From Candidatus Hadarchaeota archaeon (GTDB taxonomy: Archaea; CAYQAE01; CAYVLA01): 11,254 nucleotides of DNA. The DNA is taken from assembly GCA_964621445.1 (NCBI GenBank), contig CAZUNO010000051.1:1-11254 (forward strand). The letters are read 5' to 3'. The notes under the pieces were generated by a model. The model did not search any database and had not been told where the DNA came from. It worked only from the letters and a program-made list of their open reading frames with translations. Each line of letters starts with the position of its first letter. The stretch's first letter is position 1. Made by a program: the position numbers and the translations under genes. Shown in pieces: positions 3 through 11,032 of this stretch.

Positions 3-1184
3 GCCCTTGCATTTAGCCATAACATGACCGCGGACAACTCGGACTACTGGATACTTAACGCCGGTAACCCTCACACCTCGGGGCAGGGAATACAAATCGA
101 CAGTCCCCAGTTCGACAAGTACGTGGACGGGGCCTATACATACCTCACCATAACCGATCTAGACGTCCCTGACGAATACACGATGTTCAACGAGAGCGAG
201 GACTGGCTTCTGGCCATTGTGGGAGAGGATGGGCACCCGATACAGGACAACCCGGGAAGAGGATACCTGTTGGGTTATTGGAGCCCATGGATGAAGGCCT
301 TTACCTACGATAACGTCCTGGCCTGGAGGGCATGGAGCCCGGTTATTAACCGTGTATGCCTGGATCGGGATGACGATAACGAGTTCGATGACAAACGCTT
401 GATGGAAGGGGACCACGTTGAGGCAAACAACGGAAACTGGGAACTATCCATTTTCCAGAACGAGACCACGGTCAACCTGACCTTTCACAACACCGATTAT
501 AACTACACCAGATACTACCTCCCCCAGGAGTACGACCTGTCCTCCATACCGGAATCGGCATCCGGACTGTATCATTTCGGGGTGATGAGCAAGATCAATA
601 AGCCCTCGCTCTGGAAGGACTATAAGGTGGTGCTAAGGGATTCCCAGGAGGAGGGTGTCTATGACGAGGCCTATATCTGGAATGGGAGCCAGTGGAACCT
701 CTACCGGCCGGGGATGATTTGGACCGAGGGAGGCAACCAGTGGGTGATTGGTATAGAGGATGACTTCCTGACCCTTACCCGCAACAACCCCATTACCCTC
801 AACGACCTCTCAGGTACCACCAGTTCAAGCCTTATGGTGGAGGGAGATTTCATAGAGATAGATGTTGACTCCGATGGGCCGAGAGAGATATGGCTCACCC
901 TAAATTACGAGGGACGGGAAATCGACAGGACCGTGTTCTCCAGGTCCCAGACAAACTCCTTCCGACAGATGTTCGGTACCTGGGGCAAGCTACGCGAGTC
1001 GAGCAGGGTCTACGAGACCCTTACCCTGGCCGAGGACTGGCTGACGGATACGGTGCAGGCCTCGAGGGCCCATGGTATGTGCGACCTGGCCCAGCAGACC
1101 ATCAAGTTCAACAAGATATACAATTCGGTTATAGAGGACAAGCTGACGGTTGCAGCTTGGGAAAAATCCCAGGGAGGGGGATAA
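3..1184 (+). CDS. 5'-truncated secreted/surface protein, probably the C-terminal part of another large pilin-like protein of the cluster
   Basis: The frame of the 24..1184 ORF stays open to the window edge (GCC CTT GCA TTT AGC CAT AAC ATG = ALAFSHNM), so ATG24 is probably internal. The product is acidic, rich in Trp/Tyr/Asn and has six sequons (NMT, NES, NET, NLT, NYT, NGS). It ends in KLTVAAW...; TAA at 1182-1184 lies 2 nt before the next start. Pilin status is inferred from context only. Confidence 0.8.
   Translation, partial: ALAFSHNMTADNSDYWILNAGNPHTSGQGIQIDSPQFDKYVDGAYTYLTITDLDVPDEYTMFNESEDWLLAIVGEDGHPIQDNPGRGYLLGYWSPWMKAFTYDNVLAWRAWSPVINRVCLDRDDDNEFDDKRLMEGDHVEANNGNWELSIFQNETTVNLTFHNTDYNYTRYYLPQEYDLSSIPESASGLYHFGVMSKINKPSLWKDYKVVLRDSQEEGVYDEAYIWNGSQWNLYRPGMIWTEGGNQWVIGIEDDFLTLTRNNPITLNDLSGTTSSSLMVEGDFIEIDVDSDGPREIWLTLNYEGREIDRTVFSRSQTNSFRQMFGTWGKLRESSRVYETLTLAEDWLTDTVQASRAHGMCDLAQQTIKFNKIYNSVIEDKLTVAAWEKSQGGG
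1173..1180 (+). promoter_or_regulatory. Shine-Dalgarno site for ATG1187
   Basis: GGAGGGGG ends 6 nt before the ATG. Confidence 0.65.
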
Positions 1185-1186
1185 AA

Positions 1187-1285
1187 ATGTGGTTTATTGA
1201 TGACAGAAGAGGCGCGATCTACATATTCTCGGTGGTATTGATAGCGGCCATGTTGGTGGTCCTGGTGGGAGCACTGGTGGCTCTG
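1187..1285 (+). other. Class III (prepilin-type) signal peptide; predicted cleavage after Gly9
   Basis: DDRRG followed directly by 24 uncharged, mostly hydrophobic residues. Confidence 0.75.
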
Positions 1286-4200
1286 GAGAAGACCGTCTCC
1301 GGGAGCATTGCTAACAGGGAGGAGGAGCTCTCCTACTTCCAGTTGGAATCGGTCCGGGCAATGGAGAACAAGATATCCTCGGTCATGAAACTGGACCCCG
1401 GCGGGGACAGTTTGAAGGAGGAGCTTGACCGCACGATTTCGGTGCTGCGAGAACAGGCCGAGGAGAGGGGGATGTGGCAAAATATTAGTTACATCATCGA
1501 CTTTCAGCCCAGTAGCCTGGACCTCAGCCCGCGCAGGGTCTGCTTCGAGGTCACCACCCGATCCCAGGGAAGGATCGCCTACGATGATGACCAGGTCTAT
1601 CTTAACGATATTTTCGTGAATAGCGGATACCTATTCATTAAGAACCGCAAGCTGGAGCTCAGGTTCAGGGTGAGAGGGGATAGCGATGAGGAGCGGGGAT
1701 ACGTGAACGGAGGGGCGGTTTACGCCGGCTCCGACGTGACCATGGCCTCCTCCATGCTGACCGATTACCTCAATATGAGTTCCTGGACCAACGCATCCTC
1801 GGTCTATTCCTACACCGTGGAGCAGCAACCGGGATTGATTACCCTGCGACTGCGAAATGAGACCGAGAAGGTGGCCCTGACCAAGTACCTGTACGTTAAA
1901 CCCGATGAGGTACAGTTCCAGATCAATGTCGAGCCCCAGGTTAGCACCGAGAACAGCGTTTCCTACGGAGTGGGCTTGACACCTAATATTAACGGGCCGG
2001 GGGACGACCAATTCCGGATTGACAACACAACCGGCGGCCAGCTAAATCCCTCCTCCGAGTGGGATAATGCAACCCAGGTTAACGCCAGCTTCCAGGTCCA
2101 GAGGTCCAACTCCTGGGTAGTGGTGTACGACAACGACCCCCAGCCCTACGCTTTTAGCATGATACTGGACGAGGCGGATAGCATGGAGTTCTCCTCCACT
2201 GGGGGGGACGAAATGGTGATGATGGCCCCGGGGAGAAGGGGAAGGTTCATAGTTAACGGGATAATTCGTACCTACAGAACATACTCGGATGCCGTTACCG
2301 ACATGAGAAACCTCAAGAAGCTGGGAAAGCCTCCCTCGGGCAGGTCCAACTACCTGGAACCCCTGGTACTTGCACTAACCATAGATGACCTGTATTTTGA
2401 TCCACCGGCACCAAATGCCAACCAGCGGGTGAGCATGATTGCCGCGGTGGACAACTACGGTACCAAGGACGCCTATGATGTGGTCGTGCATTTCTATGAC
2501 GGTGAACCGCTGGCGGACAGGAGCAATCTTCTAGGGGCCACCAACATATCGACCCTCCTTAACGGAAATACCGAGTTATGTTCAACCACCTGGACCTTCA
2601 GCGAGCCCGGGGTCCATGAGATATATGCCGTGTTGGACCCGGATAACCTGCTGGCCGAGGACCACTCCGATAACGTGGAGCACAGCCCCCTCAAGATATA
2701 CCCCCAGGACGTTGCTAATCACGATGTCTCGGTGGAGGCTCTGCAGATCGACGAGAGAAATCCATCGGACGGCGATGTGGTATCGGTAAGAGGCCTTATC
2801 CACAACTGCGGGAACAGGGAGGAACACGATGTGGTCGTCCGCCTCAAGGTCATAGATGATGCCAACGTTTCACGGAACATAAGTTCAAACATTTTGCCCA
2901 ACCTGCCCATCGATTACTACGTTTCCACATCGATAAGCTTCACATACCAGGACGGGGACCAAAGGGTTAACGTCACAGTCGATCCGGTGGCCAACGAGAC
3001 AAATCTATCCAATAATCACAAGGATGCCCTGATAGGTTCCTCGAGCATTCTCCTGGTCGCCGACGATAACCTGGGTCCCAAGGATGGGACCCTGGGCAGC
3101 ACCTCCACCATCGAGTTCCTCTCCGCTCTTGATGACCCTGCAAAGTATGACGTGTTTCTGTGGTCCGAGGAGGAGAGAGGTGATCCCGGCGTCGACGTGT
3201 TGCTGTTTTTCGATGCCGTGGCCTGGACCTGCGGGGATTACGACGGTCATGACGTGGAGACCAATGATGCCCGGACCCTGGTGGAGTTCGTGGATAGGGG
3301 AGGCCACCTGGTTCTGGAAGGCGAGGACATAGCCTACAGGCACCACCAGAACGCCACCGGTGATCCTGACTTCTTCCTGTGGAACGTGACCAGGAGCCAC
3401 ATAGCTGGTTATTATAATGCAAGCCTCGCTAAAACCGTGCCCTTCGATGATATCAACTTGGATGGAAGGACGGAGAACACCGTACCCCAGCTTAACGTGT
3501 ATACCACCCACCCGGTGATGAATCATGTGCCCAGGGTAATTCCCTCCAACTACACCGCAGCCTATCCGGATGTATTGGTGACCATGGGGTCGGAGCGCCT
3601 GGCGGTTTACGAGGCAGAGGGAGGAAGCGACGTGAATCTCACCGGTACATATTCTCCGGATGGGAGCGGCTTCATTCGTGACTGGTTAATAATCGGGGGG
3701 TATTCGGGATACGATATCGACCATGACTACCTGGGTGGCGAGTCCACGGTGAGGCCCTATGATGGCAGGGTGGATAATGGTGAGACCTGGCAGGTCCACC
3801 ATGATTCCAACAGGCACATCGATTTCAATTCACTTCTATCCCCCAACGATTACGCCACGGCCTATGCCTTCGCCTATGTTTACAGTCCGGAGGACCGGGA
3901 CGCCAAGATGAAGGTTGGTTCCGATGACGGGGTGAAGATATACCTCAACGGAAACATGGTTCACCGCAACCCGGTTTGGAGAGGCGCCAGCCCGGACCAG
4001 GACACGGTAAACGTTCACCTCGACCACGGGTGGAACACGGTGCTGGCCAAGGTCGTGGAGAAAACTGGTCAGTGGGGGCTTTACCTCAGGTTCACGGACC
4101 TCTCCGACCAGCCCATCGAGGACCTGGGCATAGAGCTCCGGGACCCCAGCGGGGCGTTCATGGTCCTTGAGGACTCGGTAAGGTCCAGCGAGTTCAGCTG

Positions 4201-7200
4201 GAACTACGCCCCCTCGGTGGTCTCCAGTCCCGTTTTACACGGGTCCGACGCCTTCCAGAGCAACGGGTATAACAACTTCTCCTACGTATTCCCCTACACC
4301 GTTGGGGAGGGCGTGGATCAATACAAGTACATAGACCTCTGGTTCTACTTCGAGGACTCCGACTCTGACATACTTTTTGCCGTAAAACAGGACGGTTCAT
4401 GGGACCACCGATGGGGTTGGGATGTGGAGTCCACCTACGATGGCTATCCGGATAGCAGGCAGGGAACCACGCTAAACTGCCCATCCGGGGAGTGGAAGCA
4501 CTACCGACTGGACCTGGTGAGCGATCTGGGCCTCACCCCCAGCGGTACCGTTGACGGCATGGGATTCCTGTCTGACAGCAGCGATGTGTATTTCGATCAT
4601 ATCCATCTGGCCAGAAAGGACTCGGGAAAGGCGTCCATGGTGGCCTGGGAGAACGCCACCACGGGGACCAAGGTGGCCTACTTCGCATTTCCGGTCAGGG
4701 TAATCGAGAACCGCACCCGCCGCCTGTTGATAAAAAATGCCATTGACTGGGTTGGCGGAAGGACCCTCAACCGGCCGCCGGTGATAACCATAACCGCGCC
4801 CTCCGGGGCCGAAGTATGGAGCGGGGACCAGAACATAACCTGGTCGGCCAGCGACCCCGACGGGGACACCCTGGATGTCGACCTCTATTACTCGTCCAAC
4901 GGGGGAACGACCTGGATAGAACTGGCCCATGGACTGACCGGGGTCAGTTACTGGACCTGGGATACCACAACCGTTCCCGATGACACCTACCTGGTAAAGG
5001 CGGTGGTGGACGATTCCACGCTTACCGACGAGGATACCTCCGCCAGCTTCGATATAGACAATATAAACGACCCCCCCACGGTCACCGTGACCAGGCCCAA
5101 CGTGGTAATGCGGCTCAGCGGTAACGAGCAGGTGACCTGGACTGCAAGTGATCCAGAGGGCCAACCACTCACCTACGACATACAGTGGTGGGACGGGACC
5201 ACCTGGCACACCATAGTAAGCGATTACACTCCCTCAAACCCTTCCAGCCCCGACTATTACTGGGATACCACCACCATACCGGACGGGGTGGACTACCTGC
5301 TCAAGGTAAAGGCCATGGACGAGGACAACACCGTCGAGGACGTTAGCGACGAGCCCTTCAGCGTGGATAACGATAATCAGGACCCCTCGGTGATATTGCT
5401 GGATCCAAACGGCGGCGAGGAGTGGGCTGGAACCCACACCATAACCTGGGATATGGATGACCCCGATGGGGCCGATGACGGGGACCCTCTGGGACATCCG
5501 TACCGCGACACCCTGACCGCGACCATAGACCTGAACAGCAGCGATGCCGAGTTCAGGGGAGGCTACTCGCCCGACTCGCAGGGATTCATACGGGACTGGC
5601 TGCTGGTAGGTGGATATTCTGGATGCAACATCGACCATGATTACCTGGGTGGCGAGTCCACTATCCTGCCTTGGGCGGGCAAGCTGGATAACGGGAAGCG
5701 ATGGTGGAAGCACCACGATTCGAATACCAGGATTGATTTCAACAGCCTGTTGAGTCCAAACCAATACGCAACCGGCTACGCATTCGCCTACCTATACAAC
5801 GAGGAGGATCGGGACGTAAAGATGAAGGTGGGTTCCGACGACGAGGTCAAGATATATCTCAATGGGAATATGGTCCACTGTTACCCCCATCCAAGGGGTA
5901 CCTCGGGGGTTCAGGACACCGTGGACGTGCACCTGAACCAGGGCTGGAACACGGTGTTGGCCAAGGTATGCGAGCACAGTGGGGGATGGGCCCTCTACTT
6001 CCAGTTCGTTAACATGACGGGGCATCCGGTGACCGACCTCAATATAGCGTTGGCCAAGCCAAACTCATACGATACGGGCAAGCCATACGCCACCGGGGCC
6101 AGGCTGGGCGCTGTGGTTGACCTCACCAACATGAACTGGGACACCACGACCTTCCCCAACGGAAACTACACCGCCAACCTAACGGTGAGCGATGGAAGAG
6201 GGGGCGTCGCCTGGGACGACAGCGACTCCCAGTTTGAGGTCATCAATAACAGGGATCCGGTTGTCGAGGTCATATACCCCAATGGGGAGGAGATCCTCTT
6301 CGGAAACGTTAGCGTGGTTTGGAACGCCACCGATCCCGACGGGGACGAGATGACCTTTGATCTCTATTACAAGCAGGGCACCGGGAGCTGGAACCACATA
6401 ATCAACATAGACAACTCCAGCTGGAGATGGTATCTCTGGGACATCAGCGGCCTTCCCGACTCTCCGCCGGAGTACTACATCAAGGTCGAGGCCAGGGATC
6501 CCTACAGCGGCCTGGGCTGGGACGTATCGGACGATGGATGGTACATAAACAACGCCGATGGCGAGTACGGCGATGGAGGCGGGGGGAACTACACCGGATA
6601 TGGAGACGGCGAGGGAAACATAGGTGGCTCCGGTACCCCGCCCGGATGGGGCGACGGTGACGGTGATGGAACCGGTGACGGGTCGGGTGACGAGGATCCC
6701 GCGGACCGGGAGTCCCTCATAATGCTCACCCAGCCCCTGGGCGGCGAGGAGTGGTCGGGAACCAGGACCGTTAGCTGGGTTCACGATAACTTCGGCACCG
6801 GCCTGGAGTTCGATGTCCTGGCCAGCAAGGACTCCGGCGCTACCTGGACGACCCTGGCCTCGGGTATCACCTCAACATCCTACACCTGGGATACCACGGA
6901 TGACGGCGACTCCAACGATTATCGCATCATGGTCCAGGGCACGGATGACGACGGGAACCAGGACACCGATTCGTCGAGCGATTTCCGGGTCTATAACAAC
7001 GACCTGCCCTCGGTCACCGTGACCTCCCCGAACGGCGGGGAGTGGGTGACCGGGACCCACACCATTACCTGGTCGGCCAGCGATCCCGACGGGGACGGGG
7101 ATAACGACCCGAGCACGCCCTACGACCTGCTGTTCGACGTCTACTACTCGGACAACTCGGGTGCCACCTGGAACCAGATAGGGTCCGATGTAAGCAGCAC

Positions 7201-7939
7201 GAACCTGGACTGGGATACCACCGCCGTAGCCGATGGAGACGATTACCGGGTGCGGGTGGTGGCCAAGGATGGTAATATCAAGGGACATACCGATGTCGAT
7301 ATATCAAACTCCGACTTCCACGTGGATAACTCGAACGAGGCGCCCGATGTAAGCGTTGGCTACCCGAATGGCGGGGAAATGCTCAAGGAAAACATCCCCA
7401 TACAGTGGACGTCAACCGACCCCGACGGGGATACGCTGACGCATTCCATATACTACAGCGATGACGCCGGTAGCACCTGGAATCTCATAGTGGGCGGATT
7501 CACCGATTCGGGGACCGACCATACCTATGACTGGGACTCCACCACCGTTCCCGACGGCACCCAGTACATGATCAAGGTGGAATCCGATGATGGATCGCTC
7601 CAGAACGCCGACATGTCGGACGACATGTTCATTATAGATAACACCGATCCAACGGTAAGCATGGATTCACCCAACAATGATGATCTGGTGAGCGGAGAAA
7701 TTCAGGTCCAGGGAACCGTAAGCGATGCTGGCGGCTCCGGCCTCGACAGGGTCGAGATCTGGGCACGAGGGGCGTTTGAGGGATATGCCACGGTGAGCGG
7801 CAACGATTGGGATTTCTCCCTGGACACAACAACCCTGCCCGAGGATGCCACGGTGACCGTGGAGGCCAGGGCATACGATGGGTCCGGTAACCTGGCAACA
7901 GATTCGATCGAGATAAAGATAGACAACGAGGGTAACTGA
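1187..7939 (+). CDS. Giant (2250 aa) type IV pilin-like multidomain adhesin: class III signal peptide, 2x CARDB, GATase-like, 2x PA14-like, CBM-like, 8 Ig-like domains
   Basis: ATG1187 is in frame with the 890..7939 ORF, follows GGAGGGGG (1173-1180) and lies 2 nt after the upstream stop. N-terminus MWFIDDRRG/AIYIFSVVLIAAMLVVLVGALVAL. Domain motifs are listed separately. No C-terminal TM helix or sorting motif. Confidence 0.9.
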   Translation: MWFIDDRRGAIYIFSVVLIAAMLVVLVGALVALEKTVSGSIANREEELSYFQLESVRAMENKISSVMKLDPGGDSLKEELDRTISVLREQAEERGMWQNISYIIDFQPSSLDLSPRRVCFEVTTRSQGRIAYDDDQVYLNDIFVNSGYLFIKNRKLELRFRVRGDSDEERGYVNGGAVYAGSDVTMASSMLTDYLNMSSWTNASSVYSYTVEQQPGLITLRLRNETEKVALTKYLYVKPDEVQFQINVEPQVSTENSVSYGVGLTPNINGPGDDQFRIDNTTGGQLNPSSEWDNATQVNASFQVQRSNSWVVVYDNDPQPYAFSMILDEADSMEFSSTGGDEMVMMAPGRRGRFIVNGIIRTYRTYSDAVTDMRNLKKLGKPPSGRSNYLEPLVLALTIDDLYFDPPAPNANQRVSMIAAVDNYGTKDAYDVVVHFYDGEPLADRSNLLGATNISTLLNGNTELCSTTWTFSEPGVHEIYAVLDPDNLLAEDHSDNVEHSPLKIYPQDVANHDVSVEALQIDERNPSDGDVVSVRGLIHNCGNREEHDVVVRLKVIDDANVSRNISSNILPNLPIDYYVSTSISFTYQDGDQRVNVTVDPVANETNLSNNHKDALIGSSSILLVADDNLGPKDGTLGSTSTIEFLSALDDPAKYDVFLWSEEERGDPGVDVLLFFDAVAWTCGDYDGHDVETNDARTLVEFVDRGGHLVLEGEDIAYRHHQNATGDPDFFLWNVTRSHIAGYYNASLAKTVPFDDINLDGRTENTVPQLNVYTTHPVMNHVPRVIPSNYTAAYPDVLVTMGSERLAVYEAEGGSDVNLTGTYSPDGSGFIRDWLIIGGYSGYDIDHDYLGGESTVRPYDGRVDNGETWQVHHDSNRHIDFNSLLSPNDYATAYAFAYVYSPEDRDAKMKVGSDDGVKIYLNGNMVHRNPVWRGASPDQDTVNVHLDHGWNTVLAKVVEKTGQWGLYLRFTDLSDQPIEDLGIELRDPSGAFMVLEDSVRSSEFSWNYAPSVVSSPVLHGSDAFQSNGYNNFSYVFPYTVGEGVDQYKYIDLWFYFEDSDSDILFAVKQDGSWDHRWGWDVESTYDGYPDSRQGTTLNCPSGEWKHYRLDLVSDLGLTPSGTVDGMGFLSDSSDVYFDHIHLARKDSGKASMVAWENATTGTKVAYFAFPVRVIENRTRRLLIKNAIDWVGGRTLNRPPVITITAPSGAEVWSGDQNITWSASDPDGDTLDVDLYYSSNGGTTWIELAHGLTGVSYWTWDTTTVPDDTYLVKAVVDDSTLTDEDTSASFDIDNINDPPTVTVTRPNVVMRLSGNEQVTWTASDPEGQPLTYDIQWWDGTTWHTIVSDYTPSNPSSPDYYWDTTTIPDGVDYLLKVKAMDEDNTVEDVSDEPFSVDNDNQDPSVILLDPNGGEEWAGTHTITWDMDDPDGADDGDPLGHPYRDTLTATIDLNSSDAEFRGGYSPDSQGFIRDWLLVGGYSGCNIDHDYLGGESTILPWAGKLDNGKRWWKHHDSNTRIDFNSLLSPNQYATGYAFAYLYNEEDRDVKMKVGSDDEVKIYLNGNMVHCYPHPRGTSGVQDTVDVHLNQGWNTVLAKVCEHSGGWALYFQFVNMTGHPVTDLNIALAKPNSYDTGKPYATGARLGAVVDLTNMNWDTTTFPNGNYTANLTVSDGRGGVAWDDSDSQFEVINNRDPVVEVIYPNGEEILFGNVSVVWNATDPDGDEMTFDLYYKQGTGSWNHIINIDNSSWRWYLWDISGLPDSPPEYYIKVEARDPYSGLGWDVSDDGWYINNADGEYGDGGGGNYTGYGDGEGNIGGSGTPPGWGDGDGDGTGDGSGDEDPADRESLIMLTQPLGGEEWSGTRTVSWVHDNFGTGLEFDVLASKDSGATWTTLASGITSTSYTWDTTDDGDSNDYRIMVQGTDDDGNQDTDSSSDFRVYNNDLPSVTVTSPNGGEWVTGTHTITWSASDPDGDGDNDPSTPYDLLFDVYYSDNSGATWNQIGSDVSSTNLDWDTTAVADGDDYRVRVVAKDGNIKGHTDVDISNSDFHVDNSNEAPDVSVGYPNGGEMLKENIPIQWTSTDPDGDTLTHSIYYSDDAGSTWNLIVGGFTDSGTDHTYDWDSTTVPDGTQYMIKVESDDGSLQNADMSDDMFIIDNTDPTVSMDSPNNDDLVSGEIQVQGTVSDAGGSGLDRVEIWARGAFEGYATVSGNDWDFSLDTTTLPEDATVTVEARAYDGSGNLATDSIEIKIDNEGN
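2369..3037 (+). other. Two tandem CARDB (cell-adhesion Ig-like) domains, about 2369-2700 and 2720-3037
   Basis: Typical pattern: P..P..(N/G)..V.....V/I.N.G......V.V, ending LDPDNLLAE..SDN in the first and VDPVANETNLSNN in the second. Confidence 0.8.
3650..4132 (+). repeat. PA14-like/galactose-binding jelly-roll domain, copy 1
   Basis: FIRDWLIIG...AYAFAYVYSP...GSDDGVKIYLNG...L.HGWNTVLAKV. 161 codons, colinear with 5564-6046. Confidence 0.75.
4157..4609 (+). other. Second type of carbohydrate-binding-module-like beta-sandwich
   Basis: PVLHGSDAF...YKYIDLWFY...GEWKHYRLDL...VYFDHIHL matches the generic CBM jelly-roll pattern (G.W....+.L; +Y+D.I.L) and is aromatic-rich. Confidence 0.55.
5564..6046 (+). 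repeat. PA14-like/galactose-binding jelly-roll domain, copy 2
   Basis: Ungapped alignment to copy 1 at a 1914-nt offset; 110/161 identical residues by manual count. Confidence 0.75.
6554..6700 (+). repeat. Gly/Asp-rich low-complexity linker with GDG repeats
   Basis: ADGEYGDGGGGNYTGYGDGEGNIGGSGTPPGWGDGDGDGTGDGSGDEDP. Confidence 0.85.
7928..7933 (+). promoter_or_regulatory. Probable Shine-Dalgarno site for ATG7942
   Basis: GAGGGT ends 8 nt before the ATG, inside the upstream coding region. Confidence 0.45.
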
Positions 7940-7941
7940 GG

Positions 7942-8070
7942 ATGATCTCCAGACTCAAGAACACATTCCGTTCATTCAGCCGATCCAGAAGGGCGGTCGA
8001 GGTACTGACCGGGAACCTGCTCATGATAATGGTCATGGCGGCGGTGTTCTCCTCCATAGCCTTCCTGGTA
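7942..8070 (+). other. Class III signal peptide; predicted cleavage after Ala18
   Basis: Basic leader ending SRRA, then VEVLTGNLLMIMVMAAVFSSIAFLV. Confidence 0.75.
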
Positions 8071-10155
8071 AAGGGCAGTTCCGACAGGTATGCCGACGCC
8101 CAGGAGAGGCAGATGATCGATTCCCTTTCCAGCCACATCAAGTCCAAGGTCTCGGAGGCCTGGGGTGTTGGGGCCGACGAGGTTCCCCTTGAGCTCCCCG
8201 AGATAATCGGATCGGGGCACTACATCATAGAGACCGATCCCAGCGGCAACTACCTTAGGATCAGAACGGATAGGAGTTCATACAGGATCAGGAGCAGTGG
8301 AATCCAACTAGGGAAGAGGTCCATAAGCAGCAGCCAGACCCATTATATCGGGATCCGAGAGGGCAAGGTGCTCATTGACCCGCCTCCACTGACCGAGATT
8401 TCATTCCCCCTGGACGGGTCCGTTTTCAGCGGCTCCTTCAACCTTAGCTACAGGACCAGCGACACCGCCGAGGAGCATTACATCTACCTTGACGGGTTAA
8501 TGGTTGCAAGCGGGTCGGGAAGCTTCGACGGCTTCCTTTTCAACCCCTCCAGCAGCCCCACAAACATGACCGATGGGACCCACTCAATAACCGTGGTCAC
8601 CGAGAACGATAGCGGCGAGGGTAGCGACACCGTAAGGTTTACCATGGACAGGACGCCGCCCAACGTGAACCTCAACCTGACCCAGATAGATAATCAGAGG
8701 TTGACGCTGACCGTCACCGAGACCCGGCCGGTGGGTAATCGGGTCGAGGCCTATATATTCGTCACCGACGACAAGAACCTGCCCGTGCGTGGGCTGGATA
8801 CGGATAACTTCTACGTATACAACTCCCAGGACGAGCTGGCCAACGGTGGAAGGTTCACCCTCTCCATAAATGCCACTGATGGGCAGAGCAGGATAGATCC
8901 CACCAGTTACCTGATCAAGAGGAACCACTCCAACCTCATCCGGGTAACCAGGTCGAGGGACGACTCCTGGGATAGCAAGGGCTTCAACGGCACCGTGAGT
9001 TTCCAGGCCAACGTCTCGGATATAGCGGGAAACGTACAGACCAGCAGCGAGGTAAGCAAGTCCCCTGTCAGCAGGCCGGTTGAGGTTGGAGCACCTGACA
9101 GGAAGTCGGATCTGAGCCTCATATTCACCAATGACGTATCGGGATCAATGGAGTGGGTCATGTGGAAGGATGAGTACCCAAAGCCCGGGGAGGAATCCAG
9201 GCTTGACTTCATGAAGGCAGCGGTCAAGAGCTTCATTTCAAGGATGTACCCGGAGGACGAGGCGGCTGTATGCAGTTTCACCACCAACTATGCCACGGGT
9301 ATGGAGGAGATCGTGCTGGAAAAGAATTTCACAGCCACGGATACCACTGGTAAAAGCCAGTTATCGACATGCGTTGATGGACTGAGCACCATCGATGGCA
9401 CTCCCCTCTACGATGCCCTTTACCAATCCCTGCTCTGGGTCCGGGAAAGGTCGAAGTTTAAGGCGGTTCTGGTGCTTACTGACGGCAAGGACCTGAACTA
9501 TGCCACCGGAAAGCCCTACAGCACCCGGACCTCGACCGAGGTCATAGACCTGGCCAGGGCGGAGGGCATCCCAATTTACTGCGTCGGCCTGGGGGAGGAG
9601 GACAAGGTGGATGTGAACGTGCTAAACGCCATATCGGAGCAGACGGAGGGCAGGCTCTACCTAGCGCCCACGCCCGAGAAGCTGCAGGAGGCCTACGACC
9701 AGATCGCCGGTGAGCTTCTATCCGGATACCGCCTGACCTACACTCCTGGTTTTTTCATATCCGGGGGGGAGGAGATCAACCTCGTGGTTTACGACGATGA
9801 GGACCGGAGCGGGAAGGAGACCATAATCCTCCCCGAGCCCGAGAACCTTCCACCCCAGGTGACACTGTCCGCTCCCAACGGCGGGGAGGTATGGGAAGAC
9901 CAAGGGACCATCGAGTGGTCGGCCACCGATGATGATGGGGACCCGCTGACATTTGACCTCTACTACAGCGATGATGCGGGAACCAACTGGAACGGGATTG
10001 CATCCGACCTATCGGGAACCGGTCCCGACTATACCTATCTGTGGGACACCTCAGGCCTTCCCGAGGGAGATCAATACAAGGTAAAGGTGGTTGCCGATGA
10101 TGACCAGGCCCAGAGCAGCGATCAGTCGGCATCAGTTTTCGAGATCGATGATTAG
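7942..10155 (+). CDS. Type IV pilin-like protein with Ig-like domains and a von Willebrand factor A (MIDAS) domain
   Basis: 737-aa ORF starting 2 nt after the upstream TGA. N-terminus ...SRSRRA/VEVLTGNLLMIMVMAAVFSSIAFLV. vWA motifs DVSGSM, GTPLYDAL, VLVLTDG, IPIYCVGLG. The C-terminal Ig-like repeat resembles those of the upstream gene. Confidence 0.9.
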   Translation: MISRLKNTFRSFSRSRRAVEVLTGNLLMIMVMAAVFSSIAFLVKGSSDRYADAQERQMIDSLSSHIKSKVSEAWGVGADEVPLELPEIIGSGHYIIETDPSGNYLRIRTDRSSYRIRSSGIQLGKRSISSSQTHYIGIREGKVLIDPPPLTEISFPLDGSVFSGSFNLSYRTSDTAEEHYIYLDGLMVASGSGSFDGFLFNPSSSPTNMTDGTHSITVVTENDSGEGSDTVRFTMDRTPPNVNLNLTQIDNQRLTLTVTETRPVGNRVEAYIFVTDDKNLPVRGLDTDNFYVYNSQDELANGGRFTLSINATDGQSRIDPTSYLIKRNHSNLIRVTRSRDDSWDSKGFNGTVSFQANVSDIAGNVQTSSEVSKSPVSRPVEVGAPDRKSDLSLIFTNDVSGSMEWVMWKDEYPKPGEESRLDFMKAAVKSFISRMYPEDEAAVCSFTTNYATGMEEIVLEKNFTATDTTGKSQLSTCVDGLSTIDGTPLYDALYQSLLWVRERSKFKAVLVLTDGKDLNYATGKPYSTRTSTEVIDLARAEGIPIYCVGLGEEDKVDVNVLNAISEQTEGRLYLAPTPEKLQEAYDQIAGELLSGYRLTYTPGFFISGGEEINLVVYDDEDRSGKETIILPEPENLPPQVTLSAPNGGEVWEDQGTIEWSATDDDGDPLTFDLYYSDDAGTNWNGIASDLSGTGPDYTYLWDTSGLPEGDQYKVKVVADDDQAQSSDQSASVFEIDD
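9109..9720 (+). other. vWA domain with complete MIDAS
   Basis: DxSxS = DVSGS (9133-9147), Thr in GTP (9400), Asp in LTDG (9481). Confidence 0.9.
9844..10152 (+). repeat. Ig-like repeat of the same family as the 4769-7642 array
   Basis: NLPPQVTLSAPNGGEVW...EWSATDDDGDPLTFDLYYSDDAGTNW...WDTSGLPEGDQYKVKV. Confidence 0.85.
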
Positions 10156-10228: not shown

Positions 10229-10336
10229 ATGAATATATTTCGGGATCATCGTGCCGTCTACATTGTGACCGGAGCTCTGCTGACCACCCTGGTGGTCACC
10301 GCGGGGAGCATACTTACTTACACCCTCATCGCGCCC
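10229..10336 (+). other. Class III signal peptide; predicted cleavage after Ala9
   Basis: DHRA, then a hydrophobic helix ending in Pro+27. Confidence 0.75.
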
Positions 10337-11032
10337 GAGATCGAGAAACGTAAGGATGAGAACAACCTTGACTTGGCCAAGGACTCCCTAATGGATCTTA
10401 ACTCCCATGTCATGGACCTGCTCGCCAAAGGTCCAAAATCCACGGCCATCTTCACCATGGTGGTCCCGGGGGGAGATATATCGGTGGATGAGGATCAGAA
10501 CTCGGTCAGTTACCTGACCAGGACAAAGGTGGATTATAACCCGGGGAGCAAGTCGACGCTGTCGGTAAGCAGGTCGACCAAGGATACCCTGAGCATGGAC
10601 TCCAGCCTCCCCGTGGACCTGGTCTCCAGGTACGACAACATAAAGCCGGGTCAATATACGGTGGTTCTATCCTTTGAGAAGGAGAGGCTGTTCCGTATCG
10701 AGGACTGGACGCTGCACAAGAACACCACCTTCGCGGGCACGGTTAGCTCAAGCACCAGCAACTACTACACCAGCCGCCTGAACGAGACGGCGATCGATTG
10801 GGATATCAACAGGGACGGGGACAAGAATGACGTATGGAGGCTTTACCTCTCCGATCCCAATGAGGATTATATCTTCGACTCTGTGGCCATACACGACGCC
10901 GGGGGAAACCTCCTGGAGGTACTGGAGGAGGGGGACAACTTCCAACTGGGATCAATTCCCATAATGGTCTACAGGGTCAGGGAGCGTTACGTCGTGTTCA
11001 GATACGCCCAAATGAAGATGGTGGTTAAATGA
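10229..11032 (+). CDS. Archaeal type IV pilin-like protein (267 aa) with a C-terminal acidic, possibly Ca2+-binding module
   Basis: ATG10229 follows AGGTGG (10221-10226) and is preferred over GTG10223 because it gives a 9-aa leader like the neighbours: MNIFRDHRA/VYIVTGALLTTLVVTAGSILTYTLIAP, then an amphipathic helix. DINRDGDKND motif at 10802-10831. Confidence 0.85.
   Translation: MNIFRDHRAVYIVTGALLTTLVVTAGSILTYTLIAPEIEKRKDENNLDLAKDSLMDLNSHVMDLLAKGPKSTAIFTMVVPGGDISVDEDQNSVSYLTRTKVDYNPGSKSTLSVSRSTKDTLSMDSSLPVDLVSRYDNIKPGQYTVVLSFEKERLFRIEDWTLHKNTTFAGTVSSSTSNYYTSRLNETAIDWDINRDGDKNDVWRLYLSDPNEDYIFDSVAIHDAGGNLLEVLEEGDNFQLGSIPIMVYRVRERYVVFRYAQMKMVVK
11020..11024 (+). promoter_or_regulatory. Probable Shine-Dalgarno site for ATG11029
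   Basis: GGTGG ends 4 nt before the ATGA start/stop overlap. Confidence 0.5.

Follow-up and report, generated by a model that had tools for sequence, protein, structure and literature searches.

Gene context and translation start of P0001

The DNA analyzed here is a stretch of 11,254 nucleotides (nt) on contig CAZUNO010000051.1 from an assembly of a Candidatus Hadarchaeota archaeon (GCA_964621445.1), which we call the window throughout. According to its list of open reading frames (ORFs), the plus strand is filled by five co-oriented and tightly packed genes, the second of which encodes P0001, a protein of 2250 amino acids (aa) with the features of a pilin-like adhesin (positions 1187..7939, + strand). 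In our assessment P0001 is probably a giant modular adhesin with a class III (prepilin-like) signal, its gene lying in the type IV pilus operon of an archaeon related to Hadarchaeota. Its gene is preceded by the C-terminal 393 aa of a truncated upstream gene (3..1184, +) and followed by those of P0003 (737 aa; 7942..10155, +), P0004 (267 aa; 10229..11032, +) and P0005 (11029..11253, +), the last being 3'-truncated by the end of the window. From first to last, the spacing between these genes is 2 nt, 2 nt, 73 nt, and finally a 4-nt overlap of the P0005 start with the P0004 stop. A search of the window for RNA families returned 0 Rfam matches.

The longest ORF containing P0001 runs from 890 to 7939 and encodes 2349 aa, with ATG 1187 lying in frame 99 codons downstream and yielding the 2250-aa form. 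A preliminary description of this DNA had proposed that the longest-ORF call at 890 adds 99 residues that overlap the upstream gene, and that the true start has a Shine-Dalgarno (SD) motif, a 2-nt gap and a 9-aa leader. The overlap is borne out by the ORF list and by codon statistics, and the three attributes of the start all match the sequence: the SD-like element GGGAGGGGG (GGAGG type; 1172..1180, +) lies 6 nt before ATG 1187, the TAA stop of the upstream gene (1182-1184) is separated from this ATG by 2 nt, and the leader is described below. A GGAGG-type motif also stands 4-10 nt before the start in 3/3 orthologous loci (L001, L002 with its start at ATG 9992, and L003), and no SD-type motif was found in front of ATG 890. 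The 99-codon extension itself (890..1186, +) is noncoding in the P0001 frame and encodes the C terminus of the upstream protein in another frame. Read codon position by codon position, the GC content of the extension is 0.747/0.485/0.434 in the P0001 frame versus 0.485/0.434/0.747 in the upstream-gene frame; the third-position GC content (GC3) of all five window genes is 0.68-0.74. The codon-usage log-likelihood of the extension is -45.8 versus +30.1 in the same two frames. In addition, the upstream protein matches 3/3 orthologs over its last 99 aa, up to their extreme C termini (identity of 43-57%, E from 2e-24 to 5e-38), and in 3/3 orthologous loci the extension frame hits a stop no more than 45 nt from the start.

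Since GC3 and codon statistics, the conserved upstream C terminus, the closed extension in the orthologs and the GGAGG motif all converge, translation of P0001 starts at ATG 1187. The alternative, a start at ATG 890 with a 2349-aa protein whose hydrophobic helix is internal, has in its favor that it gives the longest ORF, but is next to impossible given that GC3 and codon statistics favor the upstream-gene frame, that the upstream protein is conserved through its final residue, that the extension is closed in 3/3 orthologs, that no SD precedes it, and that gene callers placed the start at 1187. The further claim that the protein had been hidden by a wrong ORF start did not survive: the exact 2250-aa form from this contig is already in the public protein collection, as are short-leader forms of two orthologs, so the wrong start is an artifact of the longest-ORF rule and not of existing annotation.

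A prepilin-like N terminus conserved among orthologs

Class III signals are described as having G, A or S at position -1, a charged residue at -2, and a processing site located before a hydrophobic domain, and the characterized archaeal pilin sites in Table 1 of the same work read KGQI, KGQV, RAQI, RALS and RAVS (PMC4371748). In P0001 the site is R8-G9|A10 (RG|AI), that is, R at -2 and G at -1, directly adjoining the helix, and the H-domain of ~20 residues that is expected right after such a site, near the N terminus, is present as residues 10-33. The predicted class III leader, MWFIDDRRG (aa 1-9; 1187..1213, +), would be cleaved after Gly9 to give a mature protein starting with AIYIF, and it is followed by the H-domain or predicted alpha1-N helix AIYIFSVVLIAAMLVVLVGALVAL (aa 10-33; 1214..1285, +), in which 24 hydrophobic residues precede the sequence EKT. 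Thus, by the published criteria P0001 carries an archaeal class III signal, whose cleavage is predicted.

This signal is conserved in the ortholog set, which comprises five proteins: P0001, P0006, the L001 copy (corresponding to P0007) and the copies in L002 and L003. R-G is invariant in 5/5 orthologs and directly precedes the hydrophobic helix, and the leader varies both in length (6-13 aa) and in sequence. Position +1 is Ala in four orthologs and Gln in one (the L003 protein reads RG|QI), positions +2 to +9 hardly change, and the helix as a whole is almost invariant. The preliminary description had staked its reading on homologs keeping R-G before the helix, which all five do.

The same helix is the sole membrane tether of P0001. 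A Kyte-Doolittle scan (19-residue window, mean of at least 1.6) identified residues 7-42, with a peak of 3.07, as the sole hydrophobic segment in 2250 aa. No C-terminal anchor was detected in P0001, the last 60 residues peaking at 0.27 (Kyte-Doolittle, 15-residue window), and a PGF-CTERM or other sorting signal is likewise lacking, since NCBIfam gave no match at all on P0001. Hydrophobicity scan and NCBIfam therefore agree with the earlier observation that the protein ends without a transmembrane helix or a PGF-CTERM-like tail.

Pilus machinery in orthologous loci

A contig scan with an alignment of the N-domain yielded three orthologous loci, one in a metagenome-assembled genome titled uncultured Thermococci archaeon and two in genomes titled Candidatus Hadarchaeota archaeon, Hadarchaeota being a phylum of Methanobacteriati. 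The survey of pilus machinery covered the window plus L001 to L003, with 10 kb of upstream sequence for L001 and L002. In L002, these 10 kb hold machinery genes in the same orientation as the big gene. They begin with the C-terminal end of a PilB3-like ATPase that is cut by the locus end (3-368; PilB3_C at 23.8 bits and E 5e-5, short of the cut-off of 27) and continue with two T2SSF platform genes (56.2 and 61.1 bits, cut-off 25.2), an Ig/TPR protein, an ArsR-type HTH regulator, and a small Pilin_N pilin (5560-6042; 26.2 bits, cut-off 25.2) whose N terminus reads MFSEKRA|ITPVIATLLL. A 375-aa protein with an RA|LE/FE... N terminus and a weak DUF7287 match follows, then an 800-aa toroid protein that is the ortholog of the first gene in the window, and next the big gene. 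Of the hallmarks of a type IV filament locus, platform genes were thus found in L002 only, and a small filament-forming pilin was found in L002.

The gene order of L001 is that of L002, except that a three-gene ABC transporter comes after the pilin. The L001 pilin (1261-1713) scores 22.8 bits with Pilin_N, below the cut-off of 25.2; the pilins of L001 and L002 are 145-150 aa long, are identical over their first 32 residues and have the site RA|IT. The ABC transporter, composed of one ATPase and two ABC-2 permeases, occupies positions 2393-6254 of L001 between the pilin and the 375-aa gene and is absent in L002.

Domain architecture of the payload

Pfam reports only CARDB (PF07705) and Big_7 (PF17957) above cut-offs on P0001, which is the CARDB/Ig annotation that had been anticipated from an automated pipeline. 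Mapping of repeats by phmmer and hmmsearch domain tables resolved further domains (self-BLAST of P0001 returned the identity match alone), for a payload of 2 CARDB, 2 PA14-like and ~9 Ig-like domains. The first CARDB domain (aa 397-496; 2375..2674, +) scores 46.5 bits with a cut-off of 22.7, and the CARDB-like domain 2 (aa 519-612; 2741..3022, +) falls just under the same cut-off with 22.2 bits (E 1.7e-4). Copy 1 of a PA14-like beta-sandwich follows (aa ~810-985; 3614..4141, +). The Ig-like repeat array (4778..7927, +) was delineated with its own HMM at domain E-values of 3e-7 to 5e-38 and comprises repeats at aa 1198-1292, 1297-1395, 1691-1773, 1845-1937, 1941-2048, 2053-2152 and 2155-2247, together with a split repeat (aa 1400-1429 + 1645-1686; 5384-5473 and 6119-6244, +) that is interrupted by PA14-like copy 2 (aa 1451-1626, ~176 aa; 5537..6064, +). 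The Big_7 match of Pfam (aa 2155-2225; 63.2 bits, cut-off 24.1) coincides with the last repeat, and a Gly/Asp-rich, low-complexity linker of the GDGxG type (aa 1774-1844; 6506-6718, +) separates two blocks of Ig-like repeats.

The two PA14-like copies are 61% identical. Copy 2, the nested insertion, is conserved in each of the 4 proteins long enough to include this region, and copy 1 is present in the window protein only, being absent at the same place in P0006, L001 and L003; this absence accounts for the difference between 2250 aa in P0001 and 2073 aa in P0006. The duplication looks like a lineage-specific domain gain. Searches with this domain gave 0 sequence relatives in the PDB at E <= 1 and no Pfam match at E <= 1, and its PA14 label is tentative, coming from an Atlas lead alone (0.79; PA14 in 13% of members).

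P0001 is very acidic, with a net charge of -232 and 11.7% Asp, and its repeats hold six DPDGD-type motifs, a combination that suggests cation binding. Judged from its sequence, the composition of the payload is typical of an extended adhesin.

Neighboring genes with pilin-like N termini

Pilin-like N termini recur in the genes around P0001. P0003 starts with ...RSRRA|VEVLTGNLLMIMV (RRA|VEVLTG...) and is hydrophobic over residues 17-47; its VWA domain spans 394-587, the DxSxS motif lying at 398-402, and the protein closes with a single Ig-like repeat like those of P0001. P0004, a candidate minor pilin, reads ...RDHRA|VYIVTGALL, and its family has R at -2 in 14/14 members, with A (10), G (3) or S (1) at -1. 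The N terminus of P0005 (...DLRA|MDQTIANLLILFV; RA|MD) is pilin-like too, as are those of the L001 and L002 orthologs of the truncated upstream gene. Regarding the start of P0004, the ORF list gives GTG 10223 and the public 267-aa form gives ATG 10229, with GGTGGAG directly before that ATG.

The full-length orthologs of the upstream gene have 798-800 aa (L001 7577-9973; L002 7584-9986) and an N-terminal hydrophobic helix reading ..TYEAG IAVLIVL... They match models of the squalene-hopene cyclase and prenyltransferase alpha-alpha toroid with up to 42 bits, a fold that is unexpected in a surface protein of a pilus operon.

A crude motif detector gave a similar overview of the window and the loci. 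It looked in stop-to-stop segments of at least 60 aa for [KRDE][GAS] within 35 codons of the start, followed by 22 residues with a mean hydropathy of at least 1.7. Of 336 segments, 17 were flagged, 12 of which are co-oriented genes of the pilus cluster; the other 5 correspond to internal helices of membrane proteins or to spurious or antisense ORFs, and P0004 falls just below the threshold.

The N-module of P0001 and its relation to known pilins

Between the H-domain and the first CARDB domain lies an orphan N-domain that we regard as a candidate pilin module (aa 34-396; 1286..2374, +), predicted to consist of a helix to residue ~69, a helix at 76-93 and beta strands. AlphaFold2 models of residues 1-400 and 1-185, for which the alignments were shallow, with 5 and 4 rows (mean pLDDT of 51.9 and 69.0), place residues 5-69 in one helix and 76-93 in a second, followed by seven strands. 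The modeled order of helix and then sheet is the general layout of pilins. P0001 and the P0004 family also have in common the motif R-[GA]-x-x-Y-[IV] across the predicted site, with Tyr at +3 (window positions 1214-1225 and 10256-10267), which may be the recognition signature of one peptidase.

The N-module appears to be confined to a small group of proteins. A profile of residues 1-407 finds its own cluster alone among 1.84 billion representatives, and word-indexed searches turned up P0006, with 2073 aa, and P0007, with 1597 aa, the latter probably incomplete, as it matches the L001 copy that is truncated by a contig end. In neither type of search was the N-domain found on short or other payloads, so that the survey gave no evidence for the proposed homologs with the same N-domain and different payload lengths. 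For residues 1-185, the look-alikes in the Atlas are small hypothetical proteins from archaea (177-294 aa), the best at 0.91 (198/256 features); they are taken only as a lead that the module resembles small proteins standing alone. The predicted complex of the P0004 family with the P0001 N-module received a score of 0.00, which speaks neither for nor against binding.

Several results weigh against the assignment of P0001 to pilins and to a pilus operon. Pilin_N (PF07790) did not match, either with the whole of P0001 at E <= 0.01 or with residues 1-100 at E <= 10, and the first 100 aa of P0001, P0003, P0004 and P0005 matched no pilin family in Pfam or NCBIfam at E <= 10, the best sub-threshold family match being DUF7266 on P0003 (E 0.13). 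Foldseek searches of the PDB with both models gave 0 matches at E <= 0.001, the matches listed included no pilin, and confidence in the models is itself low to moderate, as their pLDDT values indicate. In profile comparisons by hhalign, the N-domain reached a probability of 0.1% with the Pilin_N pilins of the locus itself, and with the P0004 family it aligned over just 20 columns, covering the leader and the start of the helix (E 0.002, probability 14%); the comparison of P0004 with the Pilin_N pilin gave E 0.14. At the level of the signal, FlaFind wants an aliphatic residue at +3, so that the P0001 family with its Tyr may fail this pattern, and a charged N-region ahead of a long hydrophobic helix fits an uncleaved signal anchor as well. 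Finally, no prepilin peptidase was found in the window or in L001 to L003 among plausible ORFs, including four on the minus strand, no ATPase or platform gene lies within the window, and the 10 kb upstream in L001 contain the ABC transporter without platform genes.

The designation "pilin" given in the preliminary description is therefore upheld in part: the signal motif, its conservation in orthologs and the locus context support it, and the family, fold and profile comparisons do not. Accordingly, we use the pilin label for its signal motif and context, and regard membership in the pilin fold as putative.

Alternative explanations for the N-terminal signal

The strongest alternative, although unlikely, is that the helix is an uncleaved type II signal anchor and that P0001, as a surface adhesin or sheath protein tethered to the membrane, is coexpressed with the pilus genes and neither processed nor polymerized. 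A single N-terminal hydrophobic helix without any other anchor is what such a protein would have, its very large payload and the missing pilin family or fold match fit it, and membrane-associated pilins alone give some adhesion in Haloferax volcanii without PilB3-C3 (PMC4371748). What such an anchor would not need is an invariant R-G, yet 5/5 orthologs keep R-G while the leader drifts. Moreover, the same motif edge occurs in the P0004 family (14/14) and in other genes of the operon, and the operon context is that of a type IV pilus locus.

It is considerably less probable that pilin-like processing serves a bindosome-like or secretory purpose, with P0001 ending in a short surface pseudopilus or raft, or being released, instead of standing at the tip of a long filament. 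Class III signals do occur on nonfilament proteins such as the substrate-binding proteins of the Sulfolobus bindosome (PMC4371748; PMC4858521), and several large pilin-like proteins in one operon would agree with this use, but the canonical small Pilin_N pilin in the orthologous operon argues for a real filament, and no part of the payload resembles a solute-binding protein.

Least convincing is an ordinary Sec or Tat signal peptide that is cut after the hydrophobic region to release P0001 from the cell, which we consider very improbable: the R-R of the leader (DDRRGAI) is loosely twin-arginine-like but is kept in just 3/5 orthologs (P0006 has D-R and L003 has S-R), for which reason the twin-arginine reading was rejected, the 24-residue hydrophobic stretch has transmembrane length, the sequence is highly conserved through and past the helix, unlike a discarded signal, and there is no lipobox Cys near the N terminus, the first Cys being residue 119.

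Proposed mechanism

The best reading of these data is a modular, minor-pilin-like adhesin that is either presented at a filament tip or retained in the membrane, its location being inferred. In this scheme, P0001 would be exported by Sec and cut by a prepilin peptidase after Gly9, producing the mature start AIYIF, with the N-terminal helix keeping the protein in the membrane. The helix would then dock into the filament core together with neighboring minor-pilin-like proteins, including the VWA-bearing P0003, and P0001 would sit at the tip of the filament in one or a few copies, presenting carbohydrate- or surface-binding domains. A tip position at low copy is expected because pili grow from tip to base and because a payload of ~2200 residues cannot pack in the body of a filament; consistently, a bulky pilin with a vWA module has been modeled as compatible with the filament tip only, in filaments that assemble tip to base (PMC8179133). 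If P0001 is not polymerized, the same helix would serve as the membrane tether of an adhesin.

The strong form of this proposal, namely that a protein of ~20 domains is truly cleaved by prepilin peptidase and polymerized as the first (tip) subunit of the pilus, is possible but doubtful. If true, P0001 would be by far the largest pilin-type subunit described, with a pilin module unrecognized by any current family model or fold search. The 800-aa toroid protein of the operon, P0001 and the 737-aa VWA protein would then form a multi-adhesin tip complex, and the assembly machinery would be shown to tolerate a cargo of >200 kDa where no secretin must be passed.

Comparison with known pilus systems

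Among known systems, the locus is reminiscent of the archaeal Clade 1 or System 1. According to Makarova et al. (2016, PMC4858521), a Clade 1 locus, as found in Methanococci, Methanothermobacteria and Thermococci, has a pair of TadC genes and five or more minor pilins that are positive in FlaFind; it also encodes two large proteins with DUF2341, hypothesized to be tip adhesins resembling PilY. The same authors say of large signal-peptide proteins in other loci that each is "either a minor pilin or an adhesin". A later survey (2026, PMC13705601) assigns two platform genes to System 1 (Epd-type) and states that large, adhesin-like multi-Ig proteins are encoded in many archaeal type IV filament loci; its main text makes no mention of Hadarchaeota, VWA or CARDB. 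The likeness extends to two T2SSF/TadC genes, one small major pilin, a series of at least five consecutive class III proteins, one or two secreted proteins of very large size for which a role as tip adhesin is proposed, and a lineage near Thermococci. However, the large Clade 1 proteins carry the PilY-like DUF2341 (arCOG03508), whereas P0001 has no DUF2341 match in Pfam and an orphan N-domain instead.

A second parallel is provided by the modular pilins of bacteria. In Streptococcus sanguinis, PilB combines a pilin with a vWA module and PilC a pilin with a lectin; the accompanying census lists 1219 multimodular bacterial pilins, names as its most extreme multi-domain case a protein of 860 aa with 12 extra domains, and includes PF17957 (Big_7), IPR002035, IPR011635 and IPR011658 among the modules of its Dataset S1 (Raynaud et al. 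2021, PMC8179133). P0001 resembles these proteins in that a small pilin handle bears grafted modules, in that a tip position is inferred from steric bulk, and in the module types, which are common to both. We take IPR002035, IPR011635 and IPR011658 to be vWA, CARDB and PA14, respectively. P0003 is the direct architectural analogue of bacterial PilB (pilin plus vWA) and can also be likened to TadG. In contrast, the bacterial census is defined by the N-methylation motif IPR012902, and the word "archaea" occurs 0 times in its main text (PMC8179133). P0001 has Phe14 at +5 and not Glu, no bacterial pilin model matches it, and its 2250 aa compare with 860 aa in the extreme bacterial case. P0001 would thus function in the manner of these modular pilins without belonging to them.

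Two further comparisons concern the tip and the signal. The TadG and PilY1 types, tip or anchor adhesins of bacterial Tad and T4a pili, are large proteins with VWA or beta-sandwich modules that occur alongside minor pilins, TadG being cited as a VWA-bearing pilus component (PMC4858521). Nevertheless, PilY1 does not belong to the pilins and its C-terminal part is a beta-propeller, and neither a beta-propeller nor a TadE/TadG-like domain was found in P0001. With Pilin_N pilins such as PilA1-6 of H. volcanii, P0001 shares the type of processing site, R-A/G and then the H-domain, and the orthologous operon has a Pilin_N pilin of its own; P0001 differs from them in lacking a PF07790 match and in being ~15x longer than that pilin.

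Modular pilins in bacteria are already described, and so are large proteins of adhesin type encoded in pilus loci of archaea. P0001 fits this known kind and differs from it in its size, in an N-module that no model covers, and in lacking DUF2341 within a lineage that is not discussed in those texts. A loose literature query found no specific publication on pili of Hadarchaeota among the papers listed, which is weak evidence that none is in print. Because the concept of a tip adhesin or minor pilin is already in the literature, the gain is incremental unless processing and location are demonstrated. It nonetheless offers a concrete, testable surface-attachment apparatus for the uncultured, deep-subsurface Hadarchaeota, and it illustrates how annotation by domains, here CARDB and Big_7 only, overlooks class III signals when the protein is very large; since no model covers the N-module, Pilin_N-type censuses of archaeal pilins would miss P0001. 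If P0001 is processed and borne on a filament, the principle of modular pilins would extend to Archaea, at ~2.6x the size of the 860-aa protein named as the bacterial extreme.

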